This document shows, piece by piece, positions 26,213 to 64,000 of a DNA stretch of 64,000 nucleotides; position 1 is the first letter of the stretch, and the number at the start of each line of letters is the position of its first letter. This DNA is from an uncultured Planctomycetales bacterium. GTDB lineage: Bacteria > Omnitrophota > Gorgyraeia > Gygaellales > Profunditerraquicolaceae. Location of the stretch: contig CAZRVK010000002.1 in NCBI GenBank assembly GCA_964603585.1, forward strand, positions 115,513-179,512. Reading direction: 5' to 3'. The notes beneath the pieces are model-generated. The model did no database searches. It had not been told where the DNA came from and was given only the letters and a program-made list of their open reading frames with translations. Position numbers and translations under genes: made by a program.

Positions 26213-26307
26213 AGATGTTACGATAAAGGCAAACCCGGTGAAAACCGGGGGCGCAAAACTTATAGAGCCTAAAGCCGAAAGCGGCTATGGTAGTCAGGTG
26301 CCGAAAC
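26213..26307 (+). promoter_or_regulatory. Cyclic-di-GMP-I (GEMM) riboswitch aptamer
   Basis: Reads AAAGGCAAACC, then CCCGGUGAAAACCGGG (a P2 hairpin with a GAAA tetraloop), then GGCGCAAAAC (matching GACGCAAAGC), then AGCCUAAAGCC, then a GCCGAAAGCGGC hairpin. This order matches the GEMM-I consensus as I recall it from the V. cholerae Vc2 aptamer. Confidence 0.65.
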
Positions 26308-26325
26308 ATAAACAGATAAATATGA

Positions 26326-26363
26326 ACCCATAGGCACTTTAAGACTATGGGTTTTTTGTTTTA
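26326..26363 (+). terminator. Intrinsic terminator (riboswitch expression platform)
   Basis: ACCCATAG, an 11-nt loop, CTATGGGT, then TTTTTTGTTTT. It lies between the aptamer and the RBS/ATG at 26401. Confidence 0.65.
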
Positions 26364-26400
26364 TAAAAACATAGGAAACGGGAGAAAAAGGAGGTGGGAT

Positions 26401-26733
26401 ATGTTTACAAAGGTAACGGCTGTTATTATGATAATGTTGTTATGTTTTGCTGCGGGGGCATATGCCCAAGAGGAAGGTGAGCATAATGCTATCACCAAAC
26501 TCGGCCAGGGGGTAATCAACGGAACCACTTTTTGGCTGGAATTTCCCAAACAGATATATAACACCACAAAGGAAGACGATATCCTGGTCGGATTAACCTA
26601 TGGCTTGGTCAAGGGCGTAGCATACAGCGTATTGCGGCTGGCCTCGGGTGTATATGATATCACCACGATGCCTATTCCTCCCTATGACCGGGTATTGCTC
26701 GAACCAAAGTTTGTATTTGAAGGCTGGGAATAA
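26401..26733 (+). CDS. Small secreted protein (signal peptide), function unknown
   Basis: I placed the start at MFTKV because AAGGAGGTG sits 6 nt upstream. The longer ORF-track start lies inside the terminator hairpin. There is a signal peptide ending in AYAQ. Confidence 0.6.
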   Translation: MFTKVTAVIMIMLLCFAAGAYAQEEGEHNAITKLGQGVINGTTFWLEFPKQIYNTTKEDDILVGLTYGLVKGVAYSVLRLASGVYDITTMPIPPYDRVLLEPKFVFEGWE

Positions 26734-44697: not shown

Positions 44698-45921
44698 TTA
44701 CTCCAAATAGGTGTAGATCTTTCCCTTATAGTTACGAAGGACGTATTTACCCTTAGCCTGTGAAAGGATATAGTTAGGTCCCACGGGGATCTTGCCTCCG
44801 CCTCCAGGGCCGTCTATGACATAAGTAGGTATGGCATACCCAGAGGTATGCCCGCGTAATTTTTCCATAATATTGATCCCAACGGCAACAGGAGTACGAA
44901 AATGCTGCGTTCCCCTCACGGGATCACACTGGTAAATATAATACGGCCTAACCCTAATCTGCAGCAACTCCTGCATCAGTTTTTTCATGATATACGGCCG
45001 GTCATTAATGCCTTTTAAAAGCACACTTTGGCTGCCTAAGGGGATACCGGACTCCGAAAGCATATCACAGGCGATCTTACAACGCTTAGAAATCTCTTTA
45101 GGGTGGTTAAAATGTATGCTCATCCAAATAGGCGAATATTTCTTAAGCATATTGACCAGTTTTTCCGTAATCCTCTGGGGCAGGGTAACCGGCACACGCG
45201 TGCCGATCCTGACAAATTCTACATGAGAGATCGCTCTGATCCTCATAACCAAACTTTCTATTTCCTCATCTTCCAAGGTAAGAGGATCTCCCCCGGAAAT
45301 CAGGACATCTCTAACCTTACGATTCTGCCGTATATACTCAATAGCAGCATCAAACCTTGTAGAAGCACCGCTTTTTTCTTCTTCATGGTCACCCACCAGC
45401 CTTCTTCTGGTACAATGCCGGCAATACATTGCGCAATGGTCGGTAGCTAAAAGTAAAACCCTGTCCGGATAACGATGCACCAGATGCGCCGCAGGAGAAT
45501 CCCGATCCTCTGCGCAAGGATCCGTCATTTCATGAGGAGCAACTACCAATTCCTCCGCAGAAGGAACCGCTTGCCTGCGGATAGGACAAGCCGGGTCTTC
45601 CGGATCCATAAGCGCCGCCCAGTAGGGAGTGATCGCCATGGCAAGCCTGCCTTTAGCCTTATCGATACCCTTCTCTTCTTCCGGGGTCAACTTAATGATC
45701 TGGGTCAACTCCTCTTTACTGTGAATACGATGCTTTAACTGCCAGTGCCAATCCTCCCAATCCAGGGGATTCACATCTTTATAAATACCGATCTGCTGAT
45801 AATCTCGAGGCCTCTTACCAATACGCGCGGGGGCAGCAACTTCTAATTGCAATTTGGGATTTTCAACCGTAATCACATTATTAGTGGGATTGCTCAAGTT
45901 ACTCCTTTCGCTTAAAAGCAC
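44698..45921 (-). CDS. kamA: Lysine 2,3-aminomutase (KamA-type radical SAM/PLP enzyme)
   Basis: Nearly colinear with my recollection of clostridial KamA: ITPYWAALMDPEDP, HRYPDRVLLLATDHCAMYCRHCTRRR (CxxxCxxC), RPYYIYQCD, GHTSGYAIPTYVIDGPGGGGK. Confidence 0.9.
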   Translation of the reverse strand: MLLSERSNLSNPTNNVITVENPKLQLEVAAPARIGKRPRDYQQIGIYKDVNPLDWEDWHWQLKHRIHSKEELTQIIKLTPEEEKGIDKAKGRLAMAITPYWAALMDPEDPACPIRRQAVPSAEELVVAPHEMTDPCAEDRDSPAAHLVHRYPDRVLLLATDHCAMYCRHCTRRRLVGDHEEEKSGASTRFDAAIEYIRQNRKVRDVLISGGDPLTLEDEEIESLVMRIRAISHVEFVRIGTRVPVTLPQRITEKLVNMLKKYSPIWMSIHFNHPKEISKRCKIACDMLSESGIPLGSQSVLLKGINDRPYIMKKLMQELLQIRVRPYYIYQCDPVRGTQHFRTPVAVGINIMEKLRGHTSGYAIPTYVIDGPGGGGKIPVGPNYILSQAKGKYVLRNYKGKIYTYLE

Positions 45922-46894
45922 TCGTTAATATCGCCTCAATAAGATCCTCGTATTTCATTCCGGAGGCATAAGCCATAACCGGAAAATTCGATTCCTTTGG
46001 ATCAAGACCAGGTAACGGGTTTATCTCCAAGACATAGGGGATATTATCTTTACTCAAACGGATATCCGTCCGGGAAATATCCAAACACCCTACAGAATGA
46101 TGAGTCTTAAGCGCTACCTCTTTAACCCGCCTTTCGGTTTCTTTATCTAACCTGGCCGGGCAATGGAACGTAGGGGTTAACCCTAATTCGCGGTTACCCT
46201 GGTATTCCTTCATCTTCCAGGAATAAAAAAATTCTTCTTGGTTAGAGCAGGTAGAAAAGTCGATTTCCAGGATAGGCAGGATCGTGGTTTTGCCGTTTTC
46301 CAGGATCCCTACCGTAAGCTCCTTGCCCTCAATGAACTCCTCAACCAATGCCTCCTGATGATAATTGTGGATCAACTCCTTGACTTTCTTATAAAGCCCG
46401 GAGCTATCTCTGACCACATTAGATGAATTGATCCCTTTGGCAGAACCTTCGCAATTGGGTTTGACTATCAGCGGAAACTTTAATTCGGCAAGCAACTTCT
46501 CGTTCCCGGTCTCAAAAACCTGGAAATTGGGAGTGGGGATATTCTCTGCTAAAAGTATCTTCTTGGTTAAAGCCTTGTTCAAGGCCAAAGCCAGAGAAAA
46601 AGTATTTGAACCGGTATAAGGCACATCCAAATAATCCAATATCGCAGGGATCTCTGATTCACGGAACTTCCCAGACTTTCCTTCTGCGATATTAAAAACC
46701 ATATCTACGGTGTTTTTGCGAAAATAGGAAAACAGGTTCGGGTATTCGGCCTCCACAAGCTCAACGCTGTGCCCTTTTTTATTTAAAGCAGAGGCGATCG
46801 CATTTATGGTTTCTTCGGAATCGAATTCCGAGAAATAATCCTCCGGCTTTGTCAGATCTTTTTTCTTCAGGTTATAGGTTAAGGCGATTTTCAT
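45899..46894 (-). CDS. ATP-grasp ligase, D-alanine--D-alanine ligase family (short form)
   Basis: 331 aa with Ddl-like N-domain and ATP-grasp motifs (LDVPYTGS, EEFIEGKELTVGIL, VLEINPLPGL). It overlaps kamA by 23 nt. Confidence 0.7.
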   Translation of the reverse strand: MKIALTYNLKKKDLTKPEDYFSEFDSEETINAIASALNKKGHSVELVEAEYPNLFSYFRKNTVDMVFNIAEGKSGKFRESEIPAILDYLDVPYTGSNTFSLALALNKALTKKILLAENIPTPNFQVFETGNEKLLAELKFPLIVKPNCEGSAKGINSSNVVRDSSGLYKKVKELIHNYHQEALVEEFIEGKELTVGILENGKTTILPILEIDFSTCSNQEEFFYSWKMKEYQGNRELGLTPTFHCPARLDKETERRVKEVALKTHHSVGCLDISRTDIRLSKDNIPYVLEINPLPGLDPKESNFPVMAYASGMKYEDLIEAILTSAFKRKE

Positions 46895-46916
46895 CGCGAT
46901 TTTGACGCTCTCCGTG

Positions 46917-47906
46917 TTAATTCAGATTATTTCTTTCCAGGGCCGCCTTTAATATCCTGCCAATGATCTCATTATAAGAGATCCCTATCTGTTTGGCAAC
47001 CACCTCAAAAACATCTTCTGTCGATAGAGACGGCAAAGGATTGATCTCCAGGACATAGGCATTACCTTCATTATCCACCCGGAAATCAACCCGACCAAAA
47101 TCACAGCATTCAACAGCATTATAGGTGCGCAGCGCAAGCTCGGAAATTTTCTTCGCCAAGTCTGCTCCAATTCGCGCCGGACAAATATATTCCAGGCGGT
47201 CAGAAGTAATCCTGGAAAAGGTATAAAATTTATCGTTCAATTTGAGCTTGCCGTCGATTTTAATCTGAACGATCGGCATCACCTCCGGACGGTCATTCCC
47301 GATCAAGGCTACGGTAAACTCCTGCCCGGAGATAAACTGTTCTACAAGCGCCGGCTGTTTATAAATACTAATAATGCGTTCTGCCTGGGTTTTGAGCTCT
47401 TCCATGTTTTCTACCCGGGAATCTTCCGATAATCCCTTGGAGGAACCTTCAAAACGTGGCTTTACGATCATGGGGAATACCAGATGATCTGTATTTACTA
47501 AAGACTCCGGGCTTTTTATTTCAAAGAATTTTGGCGTAGGGATGCCTTCCGCGATAAAAATCTTTTTCGCCATCAACTTATCCAGGGTTAAAGCCAAAGT
47601 CAAGGCATCTGCCCCGACAAAAGGAATACCTGACATCTCTAAAAGCATCGGGACTTGGGATTCCCGGTTACGCCCGGTAAGCCCTTCGGATATATTAAAA
47701 ACGATGTCTACATCCAGCCTCCCGATAGTTTCGATTAGATTTAGGACATTGCCGATCTTCTTGACCTTGTATCCTTGTGAGGCAATCGCCTGTGCAATAA
47801 CATCTATTGTGGAAGGATGGTCGAATTCCGCGTTTGCATCCGGCGGGTCTCCCTCCTTGAACTTGTAATCGGTCTTCAAATCATAGGTTAAGCCAACTGT
47901 TTTCAT
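46917..47906 (-). CDS. ATP-grasp ligase, D-alanine--D-alanine ligase family (short form), paralog of 45899..46894
   Basis: 329 aa with the same architecture (SGIPFVGA, EQFISGQEFTVALI, VLEINPLPSL). Confidence 0.7.
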   Translation of the reverse strand: MKTVGLTYDLKTDYKFKEGDPPDANAEFDHPSTIDVIAQAIASQGYKVKKIGNVLNLIETIGRLDVDIVFNISEGLTGRNRESQVPMLLEMSGIPFVGADALTLALTLDKLMAKKIFIAEGIPTPKFFEIKSPESLVNTDHLVFPMIVKPRFEGSSKGLSEDSRVENMEELKTQAERIISIYKQPALVEQFISGQEFTVALIGNDRPEVMPIVQIKIDGKLKLNDKFYTFSRITSDRLEYICPARIGADLAKKISELALRTYNAVECCDFGRVDFRVDNEGNAYVLEINPLPSLSTEDVFEVVAKQIGISYNEIIGRILKAALERNNLN

Positions 47907-51937: not shown

Positions 51938-52785
51938 TGCCTTTTATCTAAAAAAGCCTTGCGCACATAATGATTGGTTAGGAATAAATACCCCATACGG
52001 GGAAGATCATACAATAACCCCGGGAAGAACTTCTTACCGTAATGTCTCGCGCCTTCGTTTTTGGCTATCATATAATAACGGTTTCGCCAGCAGAGATACT
52101 GCCGGAAGAGCTTATCAAAACCGCTGCTGCCGCCGCTATGGCAGCATTTTGCCGCCGGATAAAAAACCGCCTTCCATCCCGCAATCTGCGCGCGCCAGGA
52201 CAGATCCACATCTTCTACCATAAAGAAAAATCTCTCGTCGAAATAACCATTTTCGTCTTTGATCTCAAGCAGCATCTTACGCCGGTAAAAACCGGCACAA
52301 GAGCAAAGGCCAAAAATATTTGTGATCCTGCCGTACCTGACATCATCCTTCTTATTGCTGGCGATATTAAAAAACCTGCGAAACTTGCTAAGATATATGC
52401 CGCAAGAAAACAGGGTCTTCTCATCGGGATTCAATATCTTAGGCTGAACCATTCCCACAGGATATTTCATCTCCTTGATAAAACCAAGTGCTGAATCAAT
52501 AAACCCATCGCAAAGCCTGACATCGCAATCCAGGGTTAATATCCATTCTCCGCTTGAGGCATCAATCCCCTGGTTCCTTGCCCGGGAAGCGCCAAGATTA
52601 TTCTTATTCTCGATCACTTTAACCCGGGGATATTGCCTTTTGACAAAATCTACCGTCCCGTCGTCTGATCCGTTATCTACAAGAATAACCTCGATCTGGG
52701 CGCTTTTAATCTGCGAAAACAAGGAATCCAGACATGCATCGGCTGCGGAAAGGTTGTTAAAGGTCAAAATTACTACTGAAAGCAT
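51919..52785 (-). CDS. Glycosyltransferase family 2
   Basis: MLSVVILTFNNLSAADACLDSL...VDNGSDDGT and a DxD motif (LDCD). Confidence 0.85.
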   Translation of the reverse strand: MLSVVILTFNNLSAADACLDSLFSQIKSAQIEVILVDNGSDDGTVDFVKRQYPRVKVIENKNNLGASRARNQGIDASSGEWILTLDCDVRLCDGFIDSALGFIKEMKYPVGMVQPKILNPDEKTLFSCGIYLSKFRRFFNIASNKKDDVRYGRITNIFGLCSCAGFYRRKMLLEIKDENGYFDERFFFMVEDVDLSWRAQIAGWKAVFYPAAKCCHSGGSSGFDKLFRQYLCWRNRYYMIAKNEGARHYGKKFFPGLLYDLPRMGYLFLTNHYVRKAFLDKRQCIKNN

Positions 52786-54109
52786 TCTTTATCCCCTCTA
52801 AATCTTTTATGGTTAAATCATCATTGTAGGCTTTGGGTTTCGAGTTCCCATCATAATCCTGCCATTCGCAAGGGAGCTGTTCTTTTTTGGCTCTCAAATA
52901 ATTAAAATATTGCGTCCCCGGGAAAGGCGTGGCAAAAGAGAATTGCACGGAATCAGGATGCACGTCTTTTATATAACCTACAGTCGCCTTTAACGTGTCC
53001 TTGTTTTCTCCCGGCAGTCCAAGGCAAAATGTCAGGTGCACCTTTACTCCGGACCTTTTAGTGGCCTTAATCATGGAGGTAGCTTTATCCAAATCCAGAT
53101 TTTTCCGGCAGAGGCTTAAAATCCCTTTATCCGCGGATTCGATCCCGTATTTGATCGCATAAAGTCCGGCCTCGGACATATTATCCAGCAATTCTTCATC
53201 CATAAGATCTGCTCTTGCCATTACCGCCCAGGGGACTTTGATCCCTCTATTCTTTATTTGAGCGCAAATATCCAGAACATGCCTGCGGTCAACATTAAAG
53301 ACATCATCATCAAAATATACCGCCTTAAAATCGAATTTATTTAAAAGATACTCCATCTCATCTACGACATCTACCGGGTTTCTTTTTCTATAGCCTTTAT
53401 TCCGGTAAATTACTTGTGGCCAAAGACAAAAACTGCAGCAAAAAGGGCACCCCCGGCTGCTCCACATCTGCACGTTGGGAACAGCTAACCCGGCAAAACC
53501 ATCATTGTAATTGTAAATCGGCACATCCAACCTTTCCGGCCAGGGTAAAGCATCTATCTCGATATCCAAAGACGGCTCATTGATAATTATTCCCGAGGCA
53601 GAACGTAACCCCAATCCCCCGACATTTTTAGGATCGCATCCTCGCTCTAAACAAGTTACCAGTTCTACTAACGCCATTTCATACTCCGCGATAAGCACGT
53701 AATCAATAAAATCGTATTCATCCAGGATCTGACGGGCAAAAGTACTGGCATGAGTCCCGCAAAGAGCAATTTGTACAGAAGGTGCTTTACGGAGAATCTT
53801 ACGGACCAGACTAAGATCATTCTTAAAAGAGGGGGTCGAAACTTCCACTACCGCCAGCGCAGGATCAAAATCGGCTATTTTACGAATACACTCCTCTTCG
53901 GAGATCCTTTCTGCAATGGCATCGATCAATTTCGCTTCTTTTCCCCGGCTTTTCATGAACGCTGCGGCATAAGCAAGAAAAAAAGGAAAAGGGATATAAT
54001 GGAGTTTTCCGTCTGCCTCCGGCAGAGCGGTAAAAGGCCAGCGGGAACCCGACCTTACCCCCAGCCTATTATCCTCAAACCAAGGCAGGTTAACTAAAAC
54101 TGTACGCAT
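52757..54109 (-). CDS. B12-binding domain radical SAM protein
   Basis: An N-terminal cobalamin-binding-like domain. GCPFCCSFC fits CxxxCxxC, and a PGENKDT-type region follows. Confidence 0.8.
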   Translation of the reverse strand: MRTVLVNLPWFEDNRLGVRSGSRWPFTALPEADGKLHYIPFPFFLAYAAAFMKSRGKEAKLIDAIAERISEEECIRKIADFDPALAVVEVSTPSFKNDLSLVRKILRKAPSVQIALCGTHASTFARQILDEYDFIDYVLIAEYEMALVELVTCLERGCDPKNVGGLGLRSASGIIINEPSLDIEIDALPWPERLDVPIYNYNDGFAGLAVPNVQMWSSRGCPFCCSFCLWPQVIYRNKGYRKRNPVDVVDEMEYLLNKFDFKAVYFDDDVFNVDRRHVLDICAQIKNRGIKVPWAVMARADLMDEELLDNMSEAGLYAIKYGIESADKGILSLCRKNLDLDKATSMIKATKRSGVKVHLTFCLGLPGENKDTLKATVGYIKDVHPDSVQFSFATPFPGTQYFNYLRAKKEQLPCEWQDYDGNSKPKAYNDDLTIKDLEGIKNAFSSNFDL

Positions 54110-54110
54110 A

Positions 54111-54920
54111 TTATTTATTCAGGTTAAGGTGTTGCTCGATCTGTTCAAAGAATATCTTGATCTTAGAGATGTTCTGGTTCACATCTTTGGAATCACAATT
54201 GATGCACTCCGTGACACTGCGCAGGAGATCTAAGTTTTTAAGCAATATGGCACATTGCTCCTGAATGGCTTTTTGCAGATTATCTTGAGCAACCATAAAA
54301 GATTTGTTGAGAGCCTCCCGGGTTTGGTTAAGATCCCAGTCTATTTTATCCAGGCTGGTCCTTAAAGTAGATACCCCTTCCCTGGCATCATATTGGGACT
54401 GGCTTAAAAGGTCTTTGAGCTCTTCCAACATTTGAAGGGCATCCCCATTCAGCTCGGTTAAGACATTGTTTAATGTTACCATCCCGGCCTTAACATCCAG
54501 ATCAAACCGGCCGATACTATCATTAATACCTTTGAGCGCACGATTGGTATCCAAACTGCCCCTGATCAATCCTTCATTCAAAGACTCTAACATCCTCTCC
54601 GCCTGCGCAAAGAATACCACCAGTCGCGTATCCATATCAGTTAATCTTTGGTTTAGATATTTCGAGATCAACTGCACCTCAAACTTAAGGTCAAAAAGCA
54701 TTTGGCCAAGGTCGGCAAATACACGAATAAGCGCCGATAACAAAATACCGGCTAATATTACTGCCAGAGGTATCAATGGCGGCTTAGACTTATCGGGCAT
54801 GGAAACGAACAAATAAACACCTAAGCATACGCCGAATATAGAGATAAGCCAGGAAAACACCAAAAGAACTAATACCGAAGGCAATTTTTTAATCTTCATT
54901 TGGACGCTCCTTTTGGGCAA
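54111..54920 (-). CDS. Membrane-anchored coiled-coil protein
   Basis: Two N-terminal TM helices followed by ~200 aa of coiled coil. A Wzz-like role is my speculation. Confidence 0.35.
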   Translation of the reverse strand: MPKRSVQMKIKKLPSVLVLLVFSWLISIFGVCLGVYLFVSMPDKSKPPLIPLAVILAGILLSALIRVFADLGQMLFDLKFEVQLISKYLNQRLTDMDTRLVVFFAQAERMLESLNEGLIRGSLDTNRALKGINDSIGRFDLDVKAGMVTLNNVLTELNGDALQMLEELKDLLSQSQYDAREGVSTLRTSLDKIDWDLNQTREALNKSFMVAQDNLQKAIQEQCAILLKNLDLLRSVTECINCDSKDVNQNISKIKIFFEQIEQHLNLNK

Positions 54921-56215
54921 AATACATTTCTGCTCTTTTCCTGGGACATCTCCAGCATAGGGATAATCCCGGGGAATCTATCGATCAAATTCTGTAACCA
55001 CAGGTCAATATTATCTGCAACACTCAAGAAATGGCTTTTAATATAAGCATGTTTTTTTGTCAGGAATCCGCTCCAATCCGGATGGCGTTCAACCAGAATG
55101 ATCAGCTTCTCCAGCAACTTGCTATCGCTAACCGCATATACACAGGTCAATAAATCCCGGTAAAGTTCCCGTTGAAAATCGATATTCTTAAACCTGTCTT
55201 TTATTCCTTTGGCGGTAACAAGGATCATGGCTAAAATACTTTGCGCAAACTCCTGACGGGGATAGAGAAAGGTGGGGATATTATCCCAGGCTAATGCATA
55301 CTGATAAAAAAAAGCCAGATCCAATAAGGCCAGCCAGGAAGATAATAAGTGGTCCGAAGCGCGGCCCAATTCATCTTTTCCCTGAAAGATCAAAAGTTCA
55401 AGGTCTTTCAGACAATGGTGAAAAACCAGCAGGAAATCAAGATAAATAAGCTCTACCCGCGCGCAAACCAAATCCTCCTCTAAATAACGGTTGGCCAATC
55501 CGACATTATCCTTCATTTTAAAAGCAAAGCTTTCTGGAGCGGAATAATACTCTTTTTCCTGATAATATCTAACGTGCCATCTCCAATATGTGTTTAAAAG
55601 CGAGGCCAGATCATCTTTTTTCAGATGATGGCATACAGCCTGTGGCTGATACGATAAACCATATCCTAAACTGCTAAGCCTGCGGCTTAAATCAACGTCC
55701 TCATAATTATTTTTAAGCTGCTCATTATAAAAACCGACCAGGCTAAGCGCCTTTTTGCTGAATACCGTGTTTGAGCCAAAAAGAAATTCCGGCGGGCGCA
55801 AGGGATCATCCCAATACTGCCGCATATGCACAGAACGCCAAAGGTCAAATACCGAAGAAATATTGTCTTCAACCAATTTCCCCCCGGCTCCGGCGATATT
55901 CGGATTATCGAATCCTCGCATTAAAGACGACAGCCATGTGCTTTCCGGGATGCAATCAGCGTCTAAAGCAGCGATGTATTCGCTCTCGATGGACTTTATC
56001 GCGGTATTTCTGGCGCAGGCTAATCCCAGATTATACTGGTGTCTTAATAATCTTACCGGATACCTCCCGGCAATTTGACCGGTGCCATCGCTTGATCCAT
56101 CATCGACGACTACTATCTCCTCCACCGGATAATCCTGCTTAAGGACAGCCTCCAGGCAACAGGCAATCGTAGAAGCGGCATTAAAACAAGGGATATAGAT
56201 ACTGGTCTTCTTCAT
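54896..56215 (-). CDS. Glycosyltransferase family 2 with C-terminal helical extension
   Basis: IYIPCFNAASTIACCLEAVLKQDYPVEEIVVVDDGSSDGT and a DxD motif (LDADC). Confidence 0.8.
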   Translation of the reverse strand: MKKTSIYIPCFNAASTIACCLEAVLKQDYPVEEIVVVDDGSSDGTGQIAGRYPVRLLRHQYNLGLACARNTAIKSIESEYIAALDADCIPESTWLSSLMRGFDNPNIAGAGGKLVEDNISSVFDLWRSVHMRQYWDDPLRPPEFLFGSNTVFSKKALSLVGFYNEQLKNNYEDVDLSRRLSSLGYGLSYQPQAVCHHLKKDDLASLLNTYWRWHVRYYQEKEYYSAPESFAFKMKDNVGLANRYLEEDLVCARVELIYLDFLLVFHHCLKDLELLIFQGKDELGRASDHLLSSWLALLDLAFFYQYALAWDNIPTFLYPRQEFAQSILAMILVTAKGIKDRFKNIDFQRELYRDLLTCVYAVSDSKLLEKLIILVERHPDWSGFLTKKHAYIKSHFLSVADNIDLWLQNLIDRFPGIIPMLEMSQEKSRNVFCPKGASK

Positions 56216-57396
56216 TTTCTCATGCTTCTTATTTTTGCTCGTAAGGTGGCTTTAGCTGATCTGATCTCCTCGGATAAACCCGGACGCAAGCCGGGCTTTA
56301 AATTTCGGCGCTTAAGTATAATAAGCCGTGCCTTACGCAGGAGTTTTCCCGCCAGATATTTTGTATTTTGATATGCCTGAAAATACTTTTTCTCATAAAA
56401 AGCGCGTTTTTTGAGTTTTTTTACCTTTGCCAAAACAGGCTGCTTTACAGACGGCTTGCCGAAATTATGATCGTAACAGCTCATCATGCATCCCTGGCAT
56501 CCATGTTTTATGATCCGCTGGCGAATACGGTTATGGCGGTACGAATCCCAGATATCAGATAATTTCTTACTCCGGACATTACCGATAATATATTTCGATA
56601 ATACCCAGCAGGGATACACATTGCCTTCGGCAGATATCGGACAAGAACTCCACAACGCCGGACAATGGTCAAAAACCCGTTCTTTCTTTGCCTGCCGGGA
56701 TAAATACGCGGGGATATTGCAAAGATACCCTTCGGGGTTAGTATGGATCCCGTACTCCCGGGCAAGCCTGACAGTCTCTTTGATATTCTTATTCACATCT
56801 TCGAGTAAATTATCAGGAAAGAGAAAATTATCCTTACGATGCTTATCCAGGAGGAAAATCTCGCTAAAAGGCTGGAATTTCACCGTAGTCACCCCATATT
56901 TATGCGCCAAATCCATCACATAAGGCAATGAGGCATAATTCAAAGCGCTGATCGTCGTTGCAATGGTGCTTTCGATCTTGTATTCTCTTAGGTGCTTTAA
57001 TGCCTCGACCGCTTTATGAAAATTACCTTTACCTCTTAAAGAATCATGGACATCCTCATTTCCCTCAATGGAGATATTTACCACCCCCATCCCGGCTAAA
57101 GCAAGCTTCCTGGCAACATCCTTATCAAGCAAAGTCCCGTTTGACGTAAGGCAGGTATTGATTTTATGATGACTGACTAAACTAACCAGATCAAAAATAT
57201 CCTCTCGAAGTAACGGCTCTCCTCCGCTAAAAACTATGCTCTCCGGGCAAAGCAAAGAAGCGTCGTTAATCAATCCGCGCAGCTCGTGGGAGCTCAATTC
57301 CTTATTGCCTGCCGTATCGGGGATCTGGCACATCGCACATCTTAAGTTGCATCGATGAGTTACAGAAACAATAATTTCTTTAAGACGATTTGCCAT
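56212..57396 (-). CDS. Radical SAM/SPASM domain protein
   Basis: VTHRCNLRCAMC (CxxxCxxC) and a C-terminal Cys-rich SPASM region (CPALWSSCP...YPCW...CQGCMMSC). Confidence 0.8.
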   Translation of the reverse strand: MANRLKEIIVSVTHRCNLRCAMCQIPDTAGNKELSSHELRGLINDASLLCPESIVFSGGEPLLREDIFDLVSLVSHHKINTCLTSNGTLLDKDVARKLALAGMGVVNISIEGNEDVHDSLRGKGNFHKAVEALKHLREYKIESTIATTISALNYASLPYVMDLAHKYGVTTVKFQPFSEIFLLDKHRKDNFLFPDNLLEDVNKNIKETVRLAREYGIHTNPEGYLCNIPAYLSRQAKKERVFDHCPALWSSCPISAEGNVYPCWVLSKYIIGNVRSKKLSDIWDSYRHNRIRQRIIKHGCQGCMMSCYDHNFGKPSVKQPVLAKVKKLKKRAFYEKKYFQAYQNTKYLAGKLLRKARLIILKRRNLKPGLRPGLSEEIRSAKATLRAKIRSMRK

Positions 57397-58553
57397 TATT
57401 CCCTCTTTCCCGAAGCCAGGCGGTCATAATCCTCCAATAAAGCCAAACCCTTTGCTAAAAGCGCCTTCTTCTCGGATTTCCCAGCTTCGGTCCCGGTAAC
57501 CTTGCCGATAAAACTATCTACGATATCCTTTAAGGAATCCGATTCCGGATGTCCCCAGCAAGTCTGCAGGCACGGCTTAAGACAAAGACGCATCCTTTGA
57601 CGGGCATCTTCTGCCTCTTTAGTATGCAGGCAATCTGTCAAGCTCATTTGTCTAATATTCCCAAAGGCCGGGCCGCAGCTGCGCACAAAACCATCCGGGC
57701 CGATATCAACAAACACGAAAGGGTTGCACTTCCAATCCTTTCGGGTCAGTTTCCCCTGGAAATACCCCAACCAAAGGTAGGGATCATGCAAAGAAGCCAC
57801 TAATCCAGATTCATTCCTATACTGCTCGATTTTATCGATCTGCTTTTTAAAAGCATCTAAAAGATCTTGGGTGATCCACAAATGCCCGCCGGATATGGTA
57901 TTTTGCATATCATTTTGCGCAACTATCACCGGATGGTAAACCAAGCATTCCACCCCGATCTCTTTAGCCAAAAAAATGATCGCATAAAGTTCATCCACGT
58001 TTTCCTTCATCATCGTCGTCCAAATAGAAATCTGCGGCCCGGACTGTTTAATCCGCTTTGCCTGGCATAAAAGGTTTAGTGCATTTACTGCTTTTAAATA
58101 TGCCCCGGGCGTACCGCGGATATAGTCGTGCGTCTTTTGAGTAGCTCCATCCAAAGAAACCGCAATATTGCTTATCCCGGAGGCAATGATATTATCTGCG
58201 ATTGCCGGGGTATCAATCAAACTGCCATTAGTGACCACTTCGGTTTTCAGGCCCCGGGATACAGAATACCTGAGGATCTGAAAAATATCTTTCCTCAAAA
58301 ATACTTCGCCTCCGGTAAAAAGCACCGTGCAATCAGTGCCCCAGGCGGCCACCTCATCCAAAATCCTCTTAACCAGTTCCAGTTCAAGCTCACAATCCTT
58401 GAGCACATGCCGGACCCCGCACATCTGGCAGTTGAAATTACACCGGTGGGAGAGGCTGAAGAAAACCCAATACGGCTTAGCCAAAGGCCGGTTAAGCGCC
58501 TCGGAGAAATAAAAATCCAGGTTCATTTTAAATTCATCCAACAGATCAGCCAT
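57396..58553 (-). CDS. Radical SAM/SPASM domain protein
   Basis: LSHRCNFNCQMC and a C-terminal SPASM region (CNPFVFVDIGPDGFVRSCGP...CLKPCLQTC). Confidence 0.8.
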   Translation of the reverse strand: MADLLDEFKMNLDFYFSEALNRPLAKPYWVFFSLSHRCNFNCQMCGVRHVLKDCELELELVKRILDEVAAWGTDCTVLFTGGEVFLRKDIFQILRYSVSRGLKTEVVTNGSLIDTPAIADNIIASGISNIAVSLDGATQKTHDYIRGTPGAYLKAVNALNLLCQAKRIKQSGPQISIWTTMMKENVDELYAIIFLAKEIGVECLVYHPVIVAQNDMQNTISGGHLWITQDLLDAFKKQIDKIEQYRNESGLVASLHDPYLWLGYFQGKLTRKDWKCNPFVFVDIGPDGFVRSCGPAFGNIRQMSLTDCLHTKEAEDARQRMRLCLKPCLQTCWGHPESDSLKDIVDSFIGKVTGTEAGKSEKKALLAKGLALLEDYDRLASGKRE

Positions 58554-58566
58554 TTATCATGTCCTT

Positions 58567-59790
58567 TTAGGATCCATCCCAATACCTGTATTTAAAATCC
58601 CCGTTCATTCCCAGACCATACTTCTTCTTCAAATAAACACTTACGTGTTCTGCGACAATCCGGTGGTATTTATCATTGTAATGCGTATCGATCACAAACT
58701 GTAATGGCTCGGATTGTGCGGCATGTAATATCTTGTCTGATAAATCAAGATAAGAAACCCCCAACTCTAAACAGGCCTGCTCAATCTCCGGCAATTTAGA
58801 CTGGCTCATATTGACAATAATAAAATCCAGGTTGTGCTCCCGGAAAACCTTTTGATATTCTACCATCAAAAGAAATATTAATCTGTCGAAATCCTCTGCG
58901 TTATAGCCTTGGCGCCTCTTGTTCTGCCAGGCAACTATCCCCAGGGTATCTTTAAAATACTCCGCATCATTTTGCCTTAACTGGTGGTCAACCCTTTGCC
59001 TTTTAGCAAAATAATTCATCAATGTCAATATATTACTGCGGCTGTAGAGAGGTTTACCGGACCGGCTGGCATATCCTTCATTTATAGTCCGGTGCTGTCC
59101 GAGCAGGGCATCTTTACAAAAGGCCGCTTCTCTTTCAAAATCCTTACGGGTATGTTCGGGGTCCTGTAAAATCAAATTATTCTTGTCATCGCTAAGGATA
59201 AACCGCGGCTTGGCAGTTGTGGACCCCGGGGTTGTTATGTCCATACAGCGGTCCAAATAATCCTGTGAAAAGATAAAAATAACGGCTGCATCGGGATTGA
59301 ATTTAAAACCATCCCTTTTTACCTGCAGAAGTGACTGGTCGAAACCAAATCCCCCTATACCCATATTAATTATTTCCACCTTCGGCAATGCCTGTTCAAT
59401 CACTTCCGTAATACGATCTCCGTAATTAACCCCTTCGCCAAATAATGTGGACTCCCCAAGCGCAATTATCCTGAACTCTTCCTCCGGGGACTGAAGAGGA
59501 AATTCTCTATCCCTTAGGCCATGCGAATTAATAGAATATGTAACATTAAAATCGCTGGTGATAAGAGTAGCTTCGGCCCCGGGGTTAAGAACCCCGCCTA
59601 ATTCCGGATCAAATTTTTTATATGAAAAATCCCGCTGCTTGGATAAAGAAACCGTTTTGGTGTCGATATAAGCTATGGTCTTGGACAAAAGCGACCTCTT
59701 TAAATAATACCCGGTAAGATTCTCTCCAATAACTACCGCAAGCAATAAGGCCGCCACCAACATGGAAATATTAGCGAATAAATTCCTCAT
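58567..59790 (-). CDS. Membrane-anchored SGNH-hydrolase-like protein (degenerate GDS→GES)
   Basis: A TM helix, then IIALGESTLFGEG and a DTHYND (DxxH) C-terminal motif. It is the third such paralog in the window. Confidence 0.45.
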   Translation of the reverse strand: MRNLFANISMLVAALLLAVVIGENLTGYYLKRSLLSKTIAYIDTKTVSLSKQRDFSYKKFDPELGGVLNPGAEATLITSDFNVTYSINSHGLRDREFPLQSPEEEFRIIALGESTLFGEGVNYGDRITEVIEQALPKVEIINMGIGGFGFDQSLLQVKRDGFKFNPDAAVIFIFSQDYLDRCMDITTPGSTTAKPRFILSDDKNNLILQDPEHTRKDFEREAAFCKDALLGQHRTINEGYASRSGKPLYSRSNILTLMNYFAKRQRVDHQLRQNDAEYFKDTLGIVAWQNKRRQGYNAEDFDRLIFLLMVEYQKVFREHNLDFIIVNMSQSKLPEIEQACLELGVSYLDLSDKILHAAQSEPLQFVIDTHYNDKYHRIVAEHVSVYLKKKYGLGMNGDFKYRYWDGS

Positions 59791-59803: not shown

Positions 59804-60871
59804 CTATTTGGGCCTCAATAACCTTAAGAGTGACGGGAATGAAAAACAAGGCTGATAACAGTAAACATCACAGCGTTTAATATCCCGGCGTGCCGCAGAT
59901 GATTGCGGGGAATGCCATATCTGCTTTAAATCATAGTTATGCTCCCTGACCGGTATATGCGCCTTGCACATAAAAACACACGGTTCAAACTTTCCCTGTC
60001 TCTTCGGGTCTGACATAGTGATAAAAATATTCTTGTATCCGGCCATACATTGCCAGTCGCCTTTACGCATCCGGCGCAAATAATACCTGGCAATCAATTC
60101 GCTATCAATAAAATCATTGATCCTGACATGCCTGGCGCCAAACTCGGTGATTTTTTTATAAAGCTGTAAAAATAACTGTACCGCTTCGGGATCGGGCCAC
60201 AGCGAGGTATTTTCCTTACTGGAGAAATCCGTGTTATCCGGAAGATAAGGAAGGATATCCATGATATCCACCCCCAGAGAATCGGCCTCAATGAATAAAT
60301 CATAAAGCTCTGGGATATTAGGTTTTAAAACAACCGCCCCTATACCTATGGAATATTTAAGGCCGCCTCTTTTGCGCAGATCCGTTAATATCTTTATCCC
60401 CTGCACGGCATTTTCGTAAGACAAATCGTTTTGACGAAGGCGATTATGGGTGTTTTCCAGGCCATCGATAGAGATATGAAAATGCGAAACCCCGGCATAA
60501 GCCAGACGCGCAGCATGTTCTGCCAGATAAAAACCGTTGGTGGTAAGAATTACATCCATCCCGGTATGCCGTGCAAAGGTTGTGGTCTCGGCGATGAGAT
60601 CCGGGATCAGAAGCGGTTCTCCTCCGGTAAGCACGAGCCTTTTTATCCCAAACTGTTTCTTGGCAATTGTAATGATCTTTTTAATCTCCTCATACGGCAT
60701 CTCCTCCTCATGCTTAGTAATGTATTTATGCACCGAGCACATTCGGCAGCGCAGATTACATCTGCTGGTAAGGCTGATCTGAAGAGTATCCGGGTTAACC
60801 AGGGGATAACCAAAAGAGTACGCGGTTTTAAATAACAATACCTTACCAGCTTCTTTTAAGCCATTTATCAT
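59804..60871 (-). CDS. Radical SAM/SPASM domain protein
   Basis: LTSRCNLRCRMC and a C-terminal SPASM region (CMAGYKNIFI...CVFMC...CDVYCYQPC). Confidence 0.8.
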   Translation of the reverse strand: MINGLKEAGKVLLFKTAYSFGYPLVNPDTLQISLTSRCNLRCRMCSVHKYITKHEEEMPYEEIKKIITIAKKQFGIKRLVLTGGEPLLIPDLIAETTTFARHTGMDVILTTNGFYLAEHAARLAYAGVSHFHISIDGLENTHNRLRQNDLSYENAVQGIKILTDLRKRGGLKYSIGIGAVVLKPNIPELYDLFIEADSLGVDIMDILPYLPDNTDFSSKENTSLWPDPEAVQLFLQLYKKITEFGARHVRINDFIDSELIARYYLRRMRKGDWQCMAGYKNIFITMSDPKRQGKFEPCVFMCKAHIPVREHNYDLKQIWHSPQSSAARRDIKRCDVYCYQPCFSFPSLLRLLRPK

Positions 60872-63231
60872 CGTTTATCCAGGATCCGGTTGCACTCCTT
60901 GCAGGAAATGTTTTTCACATCCAGCCATCTCCGGAACCGCAGGTAATTACGCACGACCACCTTGGCATCTTGTTTATAAATATTGCCAAAATTAAATGTG
61001 GAGATGTTGCAGCAGGGATGCACAAAACAATCTGCATCTATATAAAAGCCGAAATTACAGAACCGGGTTTCTTTGCTCTCCAGAGAAATGCCGAGATTCA
61101 GTTCAACTCCTTTTTCCGCCGCATCTTTTTTCAAGGCGCCAAAGCTGGCACGGAAAGCATCCTCATAAAAATTCACCTGTTCTGCGTCAATAGATAAGCC
61201 GCGTGAAAAACTAACCAGGGGTATCAAAGTGACCTCCGGCACCAGGTTCAGGCGTGCCAGTTCTATTAAACTGCCGATTGCCGGGTAGTTTTTTTTCATC
61301 AAAACACTGTTAAAGGCAAGGACCGGTGATTTTTTGTTTGATTGCGACTTATAAGCGTTTAACCGCGTTATATTCCGCACAACTTTTTCTAAACTGCTTC
61401 CGGCCTTTATCGCAGCATATATCTCGGGGTTGGCAGAATCTACAGAGAACCTGATCTTATCTACCCCGATCTCAACTATCCTGCCAGCCATATATTCATC
61501 TAACAGGGTGCCGTTAGTTACAAACCAGACGGTCAATCCGCGTCGTTTTGTGTCCGCCAATATCTCTAAAATGTCCGGGCAAAGGAGGGGTTCCCCCAAC
61601 CCCTGGGTATTCACCTCTCTTATCCCGGGAAAAACACCTGACAGTTTATCCATAATTGCCGTGAATTTATCCCGGGTCAGGTTCTTTACCTCGTCCTGGT
61701 GCCCTCGCAATGACCTCCAACAAATATTACAATGCAAATTGCAATTATTGGTAACTTCAAACTGCAGGGTAGAAATCTGCTTGAGGACAGCACTATCTCT
61801 CTTGGAGCGGACCTTATCCATTAAGTGCTCGAGCAAAGAAACCGGTCTTTCCGCCAGTCCCGAGGCGAACCGGCCTTTAACCCGGATATGGGGATCGGAT
61901 TTTATTCGCAGATATTCAATGATCGCATCGAGCTTTTTTATCTCCGAAGCTAATCCTTTTGCCGACAATTTGGAGCGAAAAACCAGCAACTCCTGTATAA
62001 GCAGACTTATCGAAGCCTGATTATAATAGCCGTTTCTCTGGAGATAGATCAAATATCTTTTTGTGATCAGGAATATGTCGTTGGTAGTCGGCCCGGGGAA
62101 ATAGGCTGCACCCATCAGGCATGGTTTGGCGCAGGTGCGCATTGCTATGCGCATATCTTCTGCCTCCCGGGAAAACCAAATTTCGCGTAAAGTATTCTTA
62201 CTGAAATCACCGATCTGCCCGGGACAAACATTGACCTTACGGTCTTTGAGAATAATGATCCTGTTAAAACCGGCAAAACAAAACTTTGCTGAAGTAAGAG
62301 AATTTGCAAAATACTGCTTCAGGTTCTGCAACGAATCTACGGTGTTACTAATGAACCAGTGGTCTTTACAGCTCATTTTATAATCGATAACCCGGTCTAT
62401 CTCTTGATTTAACAAAGGCAACCTTTCCGGAGGGATAACAAACTCGTCTTTTATTGTCTTCTTATAATAATTATCGTTCTCGGAGGCATACGGTTGAAAG
62501 AATGCATTCACCCCGAGCTCATGGGCAAGACGCACATACTTAAGCATCTCGGGAAAGTTCCTATTCGTTAAAACGCAGGCCATCACAATCACCGGGCGAT
62601 CCGGACGGCTGCCGCGAGTAGAGGAAACTGACTTCCTTAAATCAGCAAACCTTTGGAGATTATTTATCACAATATCAAACAGGCCGGGACGGTTGCGATG
62701 ATAGTCATGGGTCGATGCGGTTGCGCCATCAATCGAAACGTTGATCTGATAAAGCGGGATATCCAGCAGCCTAAGGCAATTTTCTTCGTTCAATAACAGG
62801 CCATTGGTTGTGACCTCCGTCATAATGCCTAATTCATTTGAATATTTCAAGATATCAAACAAATATGTCAGCATAAACGGTTCCCCTCCGCTGAAATAAC
62901 ATTGGCTGACCCCCAACTCTTTAGCTTGGTCGAAAAGCTTCTTTAACTCTGCAAAACTTAATTCTTCCTCCGGGAGAGTCGCCTGACGAGACCATATTTT
63001 ACAGATCCTGCACTGCAATTGGCACCGCCTCATAAAATCGAACTGGATCACAGTCGGAGGGACAAGAGGGTAATCCAGGATCCTGGAATAATAATACCCG
63101 CAGTCGCGCCTAAACTGTTCAAGGTCTTCCAAGGGATGGCTCAAGATCAACCGGTTCAGCATTGCCTCGGCAAGATCGATATCTTCTTCGTAAAAACACT
63201 GTAATGATTTATCCGTTCTGCTCTCCATCAT
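60868..63231 (-). CDS. Fusion of two radical SAM/SPASM modules (double rSAM protein)
   Basis: 787 aa. The first module carries FMRRCQLQCRICKIW and a SPASM-like CFAGF...CPGQ...CAKPC. The second carries VTNNCNLHCNICWRS and a C-terminal CNFGFYIDADCFVHPCCN...CKECN. Confidence 0.8.
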   Translation of the reverse strand: MMESRTDKSLQCFYEEDIDLAEAMLNRLILSHPLEDLEQFRRDCGYYYSRILDYPLVPPTVIQFDFMRRCQLQCRICKIWSRQATLPEEELSFAELKKLFDQAKELGVSQCYFSGGEPFMLTYLFDILKYSNELGIMTEVTTNGLLLNEENCLRLLDIPLYQINVSIDGATASTHDYHRNRPGLFDIVINNLQRFADLRKSVSSTRGSRPDRPVIVMACVLTNRNFPEMLKYVRLAHELGVNAFFQPYASENDNYYKKTIKDEFVIPPERLPLLNQEIDRVIDYKMSCKDHWFISNTVDSLQNLKQYFANSLTSAKFCFAGFNRIIILKDRKVNVCPGQIGDFSKNTLREIWFSREAEDMRIAMRTCAKPCLMGAAYFPGPTTNDIFLITKRYLIYLQRNGYYNQASISLLIQELLVFRSKLSAKGLASEIKKLDAIIEYLRIKSDPHIRVKGRFASGLAERPVSLLEHLMDKVRSKRDSAVLKQISTLQFEVTNNCNLHCNICWRSLRGHQDEVKNLTRDKFTAIMDKLSGVFPGIREVNTQGLGEPLLCPDILEILADTKRRGLTVWFVTNGTLLDEYMAGRIVEIGVDKIRFSVDSANPEIYAAIKAGSSLEKVVRNITRLNAYKSQSNKKSPVLAFNSVLMKKNYPAIGSLIELARLNLVPEVTLIPLVSFSRGLSIDAEQVNFYEDAFRASFGALKKDAAEKGVELNLGISLESKETRFCNFGFYIDADCFVHPCCNISTFNFGNIYKQDAKVVVRNYLRFRRWLDVKNISCKECNRILDKR

Positions 63232-63247
63232 CCCTCGTTGATATTTT

Positions 63248-64000
63248 TCATTGCCGGCACAAGGCGTCTTTGTGGCCGCGGGCCTGGCACACCCTTTCGG
63301 CTTCAGCCGTGCGTTCAGTTTCCCTTATCGCCGTACATAAAGTGTTTATATCCTTCAATTCGGGTTCATACATTTCCGGGAATAAACAAAATTGCCTGCA
63401 TTTACGGATCGTCTTCCTCATTATCCTGGCGCCTTTACCGTACCAAATCTTTCGTAAACTGTTTTTCCTGATATCACCGATCATATCTCTGCACATCCAT
63501 ATCCCATAACTTTTCTTTTCATTATAAGAAATGATCAGCCGAGTAAATCCGATATAACAACTGCCTAATGGCGGCAGACAGCCGTTCTTGAAATAGTCGT
63601 TCAACAGATCGACTTGGGGAGGGAAATCCAAGTAACCGGTACGCGCATTAAACTCTTTAAGTTCATCCACAACCCCTTTAAAAGCCTGTAACTCTGAAGC
63701 AGGGATCCAAAAAGGGACCGATGCAAAATCCCTTTTAAGCGGATCAGCATTACTGACATGAGCCGGCCGGAGTGCCAGGCGCGTACACCCCAATTCCTGC
63801 CCCAGTAAAGCTATATTCAGCAAATCCCTGTAGTTTTGCCGCATAATGGTAGCTGTTAAACCGACCGATCTGCCGTTTTTAACGAACTTTCTTATATTGC
63901 CTGTCACCACATTAAAGGCCCCTGGCACACCGCGTATTGCATCATAAATCTCTGGCGTAGAGCCATCAAGCGATATCTGTAGATGGCCGGGGTTAGATCG
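63248..64000 (-). CDS. Radical SAM-like protein, 5'-truncated by window edge
   Basis: The reading frame stays open to position 64000 (…ISLDGSTPEIYDAIRGVPGAFNVV…). A C-terminal Cys-rich region (CRQFCLFPE) follows. The N-terminus lies outside the window. Confidence 0.55.
   Translation of the reverse strand, partial: RSNPGHLQISLDGSTPEIYDAIRGVPGAFNVVTGNIRKFVKNGRSVGLTATIMRQNYRDLLNIALLGQELGCTRLALRPAHVSNADPLKRDFASVPFWIPASELQAFKGVVDELKEFNARTGYLDFPPQVDLLNDYFKNGCLPPLGSCYIGFTRLIISYNEKKSYGIWMCRDMIGDIRKNSLRKIWYGKGARIMRKTIRKCRQFCLFPEMYEPELKDINTLCTAIRETERTAEAERVCQARGHKDALCRQ

Follow-up and report, generated by a model that had tools for sequence, protein, structure and literature searches.

Among radical S-adenosylmethionine (SAM) enzymes, the SPASM domain is described by a seven-cysteine motif, CX9-15GX4C-gap-CX2CX5CX3C-gap-C, that accommodates two auxiliary clusters, and the Twitch domain is a truncated SPASM domain with the first four of the seven cysteines and a single auxiliary cluster (PMC6231123). 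FbiC, the FO synthase, is a fusion of CofG and CofH, which are encoded by separate genes in other lineages, and its domains each generate their own 5'-deoxyadenosyl radical for one pathway (PMC11917521); it was the only precedent found in literature phrase searches for proteins with multiple radical SAM domains. Here we describe gene G, a tandem radical SAM gene in a 64,000-nucleotide stretch of DNA from an uncultured bacterium of the Omnitrophota (contig CAZRVK010000002.1, positions 115,513 to 179,512; the whole stretch is referred to as the window). Gene G joins the known multi-radical-SAM fusion proteins, of which FbiC is the characterised model. It is very probably a fusion of two adjacent radical SAM genes of one operon, each half being a complete enzyme that would perform its own tailoring step in one pathway.

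The open reading frame (ORF) of gene G is present where the first-pass annotation had placed it, and comprises 787 codons from the first of two adjacent ATGs and 786 from the second. The public gene call (P0001, 786 residues) begins at the second ATG, the pair (63228..63231, minus strand) sits 3' of a GAGGG tract, and the product is probably 786 rather than 787 residues long. There are two CX3CX2C motifs in the protein and no more: residues 70-77 read CQLQCRIC, and residues 497-504 read CNLHCNIC. Both had been reported before, the second at about residue 480, which is corrected here to about 497. When the two halves were scanned separately, each matched the Pfam Radical_SAM family on its own (E ~1e-19), as the domain annotation suggested earlier was meant to determine, and because each half far exceeds the Pfam cut-off of 29.5 bits alone, chance is excluded for both cores. 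The N half has a GGE motif (SGGEPF, residues 114-119) and the C half a GxGE motif (GLGEPL, residues 544-549). Over the core, the two halves (hereafter G_N and G_C) share 25% identity (blastp E 3e-13), and by this comparison they are best described as old, distant paralogues and not as the outcome of a recent tandem duplication. The idea that the second cysteine triad is a mere auxiliary motif of the first module is ruled out by the separate Pfam match of the C half, its GxGE motif and its stand-alone fold in an AlphaFold2 (AF2) model.

Each triad is trailed by its own cysteine-bearing region, as had been pointed out, with C318, C336, C367 and C371 in the N half and C725, C735, C740, C741, C777 and C780 in the C half. 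The description of the protein as two complete radical SAM and SPASM modules holds for the two radical SAM cores and fails for the auxiliary regions: a full SPASM domain was rejected for either half on the numbers of conserved cysteines, four (N) and five (C). The seven-cysteine SPASM motif is found in neither half, the CX2CX5CX3C block and the final cysteine being missing. Against a cut-off of 21.5 bits, the Pfam SPASM model scores 23.2 bits for the N half, and 19.0 bits within the C half or 22.7 bits on its isolated 74-residue tail. Because there is no CX2CX5CX3C block and the SPASM scores lie at threshold, both halves are assigned as Twitch-type, each being predicted from its cysteines to hold one auxiliary cluster. 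The Twitch pattern fits both halves in the conserved cysteines and also in the AF2 models, where the hairpin strands and the helix are in the expected places. The four cysteines of the N half are invariant in the alignment of its orthologs and align to the Twitch cysteines of SkfB in a profile search against the PDB. The five conserved auxiliary cysteines of the C half are invariant across 27 orthologs, and the protein terminates seven residues past C780. Cys735 (61027..61029, minus strand) replaces a glycine seen in at least 90% of these 27 orthologs; it is shared with the three closest relatives, P0158, P0159 and P0160, resulting in a CX9CX4CC pattern, and is possibly an extra cluster ligand.

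Modelled alone, the N half gave a predicted local distance difference test score (pLDDT) of 84.4 and a predicted template modelling score (pTM) of 0.79, and the C half values of 89.3 and 0.87. Both models have alternating beta strands and alpha helices and match many radical SAM structures with a Foldseek probability of 1.00. The structure prediction that had been proposed as a check thus points to independent modules, with each half folding confidently by itself. In the N-half model, a C-terminal extension forms three helices (residues 386-399, 405-425 and 428-445). In Foldseek comparisons with the PDB, the N half is closest to BlsE (E 1.3e-14, TMt 0.74, 21% identity), then to SuiB and DesII, and the C half resembles SuiB, SkfB, viperin, BlsE, MoaA and anSME (TM 0.62-0.72). 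Profile searches against the PDB place SkfB (E 6e-40) and PqqE (E 4e-32) ahead of BlsE for the N half, and weakly retrieve TigE (8vpo), GDGT-MAS, BtrN, NifB and MoaA for the C half.

Twitch enzymes are the top neighbours in sequence and structure. Like SkfB, BtrN, MoaA and BlsE, the gene G halves combine a radical SAM core with a truncated SPASM domain, but they are only 13-21% identical to these enzymes. The N half further differs from known Twitch enzymes in its CX17C...CX3C arrangement, which lacks the conserved glycine, and in its extra three-helix tail, and gene G has no RiPP recognition element (RRE; RiPP, a peptide made by the ribosome and then altered by post-translational modification). 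The SPASM maturases anSME, PqqE, SuiB and CteB have a related fold, in keeping with the borderline Pfam SPASM match in both halves; unlike them, gene G is without the CX2CX5CX3C block and the final cysteine and would have no canonical second auxiliary cluster. FbiC is comparable to gene G in having two radical SAM domains in one chain that are split elsewhere. However, its homology to gene G is limited to the superfamily core, and only the gene G halves are described with Twitch-type domains. CofG, CofH and FbiC are not among the best 25 NCBIfam families, the top 50 Foldseek matches or the top PDB profile matches.

The continuity of the reading frame was examined in two further contigs. A separately assembled Logan contig (L001, run SRR15237810) is identical to the window across 11.4 kb, gene G included, although this gives weak support, as the same reads probably underlie both assemblies. 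Contig Ga0498923_0154082 (L010) comes from a different metagenome (JGI 3300048839) and encodes a protein (P0158) with 86% amino acid identity to gene G. Its frame is open from the first base through the N-half tail, the linker and the entire C half, and over 392 shared codons it differs from gene G at 12% of nucleotides with no indels. The ratio of nonsynonymous to synonymous substitution rates (dN/dS) between the two is 0.19 in the C half and 0.25 in the N tail, compared with 0.66, from few sites, in 18 linker codons. The linker (residues 448-463) is the least conserved part, and the slightly longer stretch of residues 449-466 is 72% identical in L010, again without indels. Because this diverged relative keeps the junction in frame without indels, with purifying selection on both sides, gene G is judged from these alignments to be a genuine fusion that is stable under selection, and neither an artefact nor a decaying pseudogene.

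Apart from the window genome, L010 is the sole place where the fusion of G_N and G_C itself was found. In the closest complete syntenic locus (L002, JGI Ga0172375_10000260), the halves are separate adjacent genes: P0002, of 448 residues, is 61% identical to gene G residues 1-447 and, after a 20-nucleotide spacer, is followed by a gene of 323 residues that is 58% identical to residues 467-787. Downstream of this pair are genes H, I, J, K, L, M and N in the same order as in the window. About 30 C-half orthologs (45-71% identity) are likewise stand-alone proteins of 310-335 residues, so that the homolog search suggested earlier does find the halves as separate genes elsewhere. The named C-half orthologs are from Candidatus Omnitrophota metagenome-assembled genomes, apart from one protein labelled Patescibacteria. 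The N-half family is rare, and was found only as P0002, P0004, P0212, fragments in L011 and L093, and forms fused to a family 2 glycosyltransferase (GT2). A metagenome scan with the single protein returned no matches, and one with the N-half alignment returned three loci only, two of them already found and the third being L093, which is cut before the junction.

The junction can be traced from these relatives. Stand-alone N-half orthologs terminate at the residue aligned to Pro447 and the stand-alone C-half gene of L002 begins at the residue aligned to Val464; the linker, HIRVKGRFASGLAERP, is therefore taken to replace the ancestral stop codon and spacer. Several stand-alone C-half orthologs start at about the position of Met471, and the stop/start overlap there, TAATG, may be left over from an overlapping gene boundary that existed before the fusion. 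In two other loci (L007 and L011), gene F stands between the G_N and G_C genes, so adjacency of the two in the lineage of L002 and the window preceded fusion. The fusion as such is an ordinary event, in which two neighbouring operon genes lost the intervening stop codon.

Gene G and its neighbours are listed in the table below. The gene upstream of gene G is, as had been noted, another radical SAM gene; the CX3CX2C motif of its product, at residue 35 of 369, lies past the window end and was read on L001. Downstream of gene H, the remaining operon genes of the window occupy 52757..59790 (minus strand), in an order syntenic with L002. Gene M has no confident family match and is alone among the operon genes inside the window in lacking an enzyme-domain match; it has an ortholog in L002 (33% identity), and none was detected in L006, L007 or L009. 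The upstream part of the operon on L001 contains genes for a radical SAM/SPASM protein (B), a GT2-radical SAM protein (C), an SGNH protein (D) and two radical SAM proteins (E and F), and the operon includes one further GT2 besides C and L. Window and L001 together thus hold at least 10 radical SAM domains, several GT2 enzymes, which resemble extracellular polysaccharide (EPS)-type and MftF-like glycosyltransferases, and SGNH hydrolases. The first, cut gene of L001 is an ortholog of a TagH/Wzt-like ABC ATPase that in L002 is paired with a Wzm-like permease, forming a complete Wzm/Wzt-like exporter; of this exporter, the window's own genome has so far yielded the cut ATPase ortholog only. Loci of relatives add a flavin adenine dinucleotide (FAD) oxidoreductase of the amine-oxidase family and sulfatase/phosphoethanolamine (PEtN)-transferase-like enzymes. 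Gene N is not an HpnJ equivalog: HpnJ is its best NCBIfam match, with a score of 249 bits where 577.6 would be needed to reach the cut-off. There are two B12-binding radical SAM genes in the window, gene N and another at 1113..2573 (minus strand).

Features of gene G and of the operon genes around it (positions in the window; rSAM, radical SAM)
Feature	Position	Strand	Basis or remark
Gene G, (rSAM + Twitch + helical extension)-linker-(rSAM + Twitch)	60868..63231	-	ORF listing, motif and Pfam scans
First CX3CX2C (C70, C74, C77; N-half SAM-cluster ligands)	63001..63024	-	Invariant in all N-half relatives
N-half Radical_SAM core, residues 66-201	62629..63036	-	Pfam PF04055, 71.2 bits, E 1.5e-19
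N-half Twitch-type auxiliary region, C318-X17-C336, gap, C367-X3-C371	62119..62280	-	
Three-helix C-terminal extension of N half, residues 386-447	61891..62076	-	Alignment; present in stand-alone orthologs too
Linker of ~16 residues, 448-463, HIRVKGRFASGLAERP	61843..61890	-	Ortholog ends and starts; low pLDDT
TAATG stop/start overlap, +1 frame, at Met471	61819..61823	-	Kept in L010
Second CX3CX2C (C497, C501, C504; C-half SAM-cluster ligands)	61720..61743	-	Invariant, 27 orthologs
C-half Radical_SAM core, residues ~492-628	61348..61758	-	Pfam PF04055, 70.7 bits, E 2.1e-19
C-half Twitch-type auxiliary region, C725-X9-[G, here C735]-X4-C740-C741, gap, C777-X2-C780	60892..61059	-	
rSAM gene F (369 residues in full), 3' two-thirds	63248..64000	-	Last ~250 codons in window
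rSAM gene H, 355 residues	59804..60871	-	ATG overlaps stop of G (ATGA)
SGNH-like I	58567..59790	-	
rSAM J	57396..58553	-	
rSAM/SPASM K	56212..57396	-	
GT2 L	54896..56215	-	
Membrane coiled-coil protein M	54111..54920	-	269 residues, membrane-anchored
B12-rSAM N	52757..54109	-	

Tandem fusion had been called uncommon in the first-pass annotation. Fusions of two radical SAM domains may indeed be uncommon in the superfamily at large, but they are not so in this operon family, in which at least five other combinations occur. GT2 L is fused to G_N in P0003 and P0005 (L009, L006), GT2-radical SAM C to a G_C-like module in L006 (2..2848, more than 948 residues), F to G_C in P0010 (625 residues), J to K in L012 (3194..5701; 836 codons, two CX3CX2C motifs), and the B12-radical SAM protein N to three further radical SAM modules in P0054 (1,927 residues). 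Relatives of this operon's proteins reach 1,100-1,900 residues with two to four radical SAM domains. At least two CX3CX2C motifs are present in 44 of 157 proteins (the top 150 of an exhaustive search plus those from the first homolog search), a count that shows existence and abundance and is biased as a frequency, given that a two-domain query favours multi-motif targets. Very long proteins that combine several enzymes, with Radical_SAM and glycosyltransferase domains among them, are reported to be common in Omnitrophota (bioRxiv 10.64898/2026.06.07.730766); these giant fusions have the same tendency to chain metabolic enzymes, and gene G is a modest two-module case. The Omnitrophota papers describe radical SAM and glycosyltransferase modules in giant proteins and 'ladderane-like' calls of biosynthetic gene clusters, and this operon is not mentioned in them.

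In the mechanism proposed here, loss of the ancestral stop codon and short spacer would have left a flexible linker of about 16 residues between two enzymes. Each half would consist of a partial TIM barrel, in which the CX3CX2C motif binds a [4Fe-4S] cluster and SAM, and a Twitch-type domain; the cysteine pattern suggests two clusters in each half, a SAM cluster and an auxiliary cluster, or about four Fe-S clusters per polypeptide. Each half is expected to cleave SAM to its own 5'-deoxyadenosyl radical and to initiate a distinct tailoring step by hydrogen abstraction. The fusion would set a 1:1 ratio of the G_N and G_C enzymes and keep both close together, and the radical SAM enzymes of the operon would act together as a group. 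Two consecutive reactions on one substrate, as first proposed from the gene's tandem structure, are plausible; the varied fusion partners, however, point less to a specific hand-over from G_N to G_C than to enzymes co-operating throughout the pathway.

Several points weigh against reading gene G as a pair of tailoring enzymes for one pathway, or against a sugar-directed pathway. The G_N and G_C activities are not obligately paired, because G_C orthologs far outnumber G_N orthologs. By profile, the N half is nearest to the peptide-modifying SkfB and PqqE, with BlsE behind them. Finally, no NCBIfam model reaches its cut-off for gene G: the best, TIGR04317, which represents a tungsten-cofactor radical SAM maturase family, scores 214.9 bits against the 380 demanded of an equivalog, and the BlsE equivalog, TIGR04466, scores 91.6 against 400. 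As no NCBIfam equivalog passes its cut-off for any radical SAM protein of the operon, no named function can be transferred.

With regard to the substrate, the likeliest candidate is an intermediate of sugar, glycan or glycolipid type, which the GT2 enzymes would assemble and the Wzm/Wzt-like transporter would export. A glycoconjugate that is assembled in the cytoplasm, tailored and exported by the ABC system is favoured, with confidence just short of even, because of the exporter genes, the GT2s, the lack of an RRE detected by Pfam in the nine window operon proteins and the fact that no precursor-like ORF was noticed. In P0003 and P0005, G_N and a GT2 are even part of a single chain. The EPS-type and MftF-like GT2s, the SGNH hydrolases, and the sulfatase/PEtN-transferase-like and FAD-oxidoreductase neighbours in relatives also point towards a glycan, as does the sugar-nucleoside enzyme BlsE, which ranks first among the structural neighbours of the N half, with DesII near the top.

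The most serious alternative, although an unlikely one, is a pathway for a RiPP or a peptide-derived cofactor, similar to mycofactocin or a sactipeptide, in which both halves would mature one precursor and the GT2s would glycosylate the product. It would account for the profile search in which SkfB and PqqE rank first for the N half, for the Foldseek list of the C half, which is headed by SuiB and SkfB, and for the resemblance to MftF, the mycofactocin glycosyltransferase, which is the best NCBIfam match of GT2 L and the second for the GT2-radical SAM protein C, both below cut-off. However, no RRE or PqqD domain was found by Pfam in the nine window operon proteins (E<=0.01) or in the separate halves (E<=10), the upstream radical SAM genes B, C, E and F having been scanned with NCBIfam only. 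The genes are tightly packed and abut or overlap one another; a small conserved ORF that might encode a precursor was not noticed, though no systematic small-ORF search was made. Furthermore, the exporter belongs with the Wzm/Wzt (TagGH) glycopolymer transporters and not with those of the peptidase-ABC type, and no RiPP maturase model reaches its cut-off.

It is improbable that only one half is catalytic, with the other serving as a structural or electron-relay scaffold, or that the C half is also translated from an internal start. An ATG (Met471) and a TTG (Leu466) do lie behind a GGAAAG-like purine tract, and some modules may decay in the very long multi-enzyme proteins that Omnitrophota are reported to build, but both triads, both GGE-type motifs and the auxiliary cysteines are invariant in orthologs, the C half has a dN/dS of about 0.2, and the TTG is not kept in L010, which has TTC there. 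It is similarly improbable that a membrane lipid (hopanoid-, ladderane- or tetraether-like) takes the place of the glycan as substrate. HpnJ is the best NCBIfam match of the neighbouring gene N, GDGT-MAS is among the PDB relatives and an amine-oxidase/desaturase-like gene is present in related loci; against these stand lipid-enzyme matches that are all well under their cut-offs, and cyclase, fatty acid synthase and prenyltransferase genes were not found in the operon. Finally, an assembly, sequencing or gene-calling artefact in a genome that really has two genes, with the N half ending, for example, at the +1-frame TAA, is suggested by the TAATG overlap exactly where the C half would be expected to begin, by the two genes of the closest fully syntenic locus and by the probable common reads of the two window assemblies, but is largely refuted, and very improbable, given the same continuous frame in the independent L010 at 12% nucleotide difference, with no indel and with purifying selection on each side of the junction.

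If gene G is a fusion of two complete tailoring enzymes, it is Rosetta-stone evidence that two uncharacterised Twitch-type radical SAM enzymes share a pathway, and the alternative fusions outline a conserved operon, unusually rich in radical SAM genes, in poorly known uncultured bacteria. This operon, with its at least 10 radical SAM domains, is of more interest than the fusion itself. A more doubtful extension is that the operon constitutes a radical SAM 'assembly line' in Omnitrophota and related uncultured bacteria, whose enzymes would work as one complex to build a multiply radical-modified surface glycoconjugate. The operon would provide for this at least 10 radical SAM domains, of which two are B12-dependent, together with three to four GT2 enzymes, SGNH hydrolases and a Wzm/Wzt-type exporter, and the G_N+G_C, F+G_C, GT2+G_N, GT2-radical SAM+G_C-like, J+K and B12-radical SAM+three fusions would be Rosetta-stone traces of the complex. 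Were a radical-tailored surface glycan to be confirmed, it would extend carbohydrate radical SAM chemistry well past the single-step enzymes BtrN, DesII and BlsE.

The window is chromosomal, and elsewhere in it are genes for EF-G-like, PurH, MnmE, Mur ligase and AcrB proteins. The region 44698..47906 (minus strand) contains a gene for a KamA-like lysine-2,3-aminomutase radical SAM protein (LAM_C), followed by two D-Ala-D-Ala-ligase-like ATP-grasp genes; this group, which adjoins the EF-G-like gene, could be a beta-lysine or peptide-ligation module. A cyclic di-GMP-I riboswitch (RF01051) is found at 26218..26305 (plus strand), scoring 77.5 bits where the gathering score is 35, and 41 nucleotides 3' of it is an ORF of 128 residues (26347..26733, plus strand) whose hydrophobic N-terminus, judged by eye, resembles a signal peptide.

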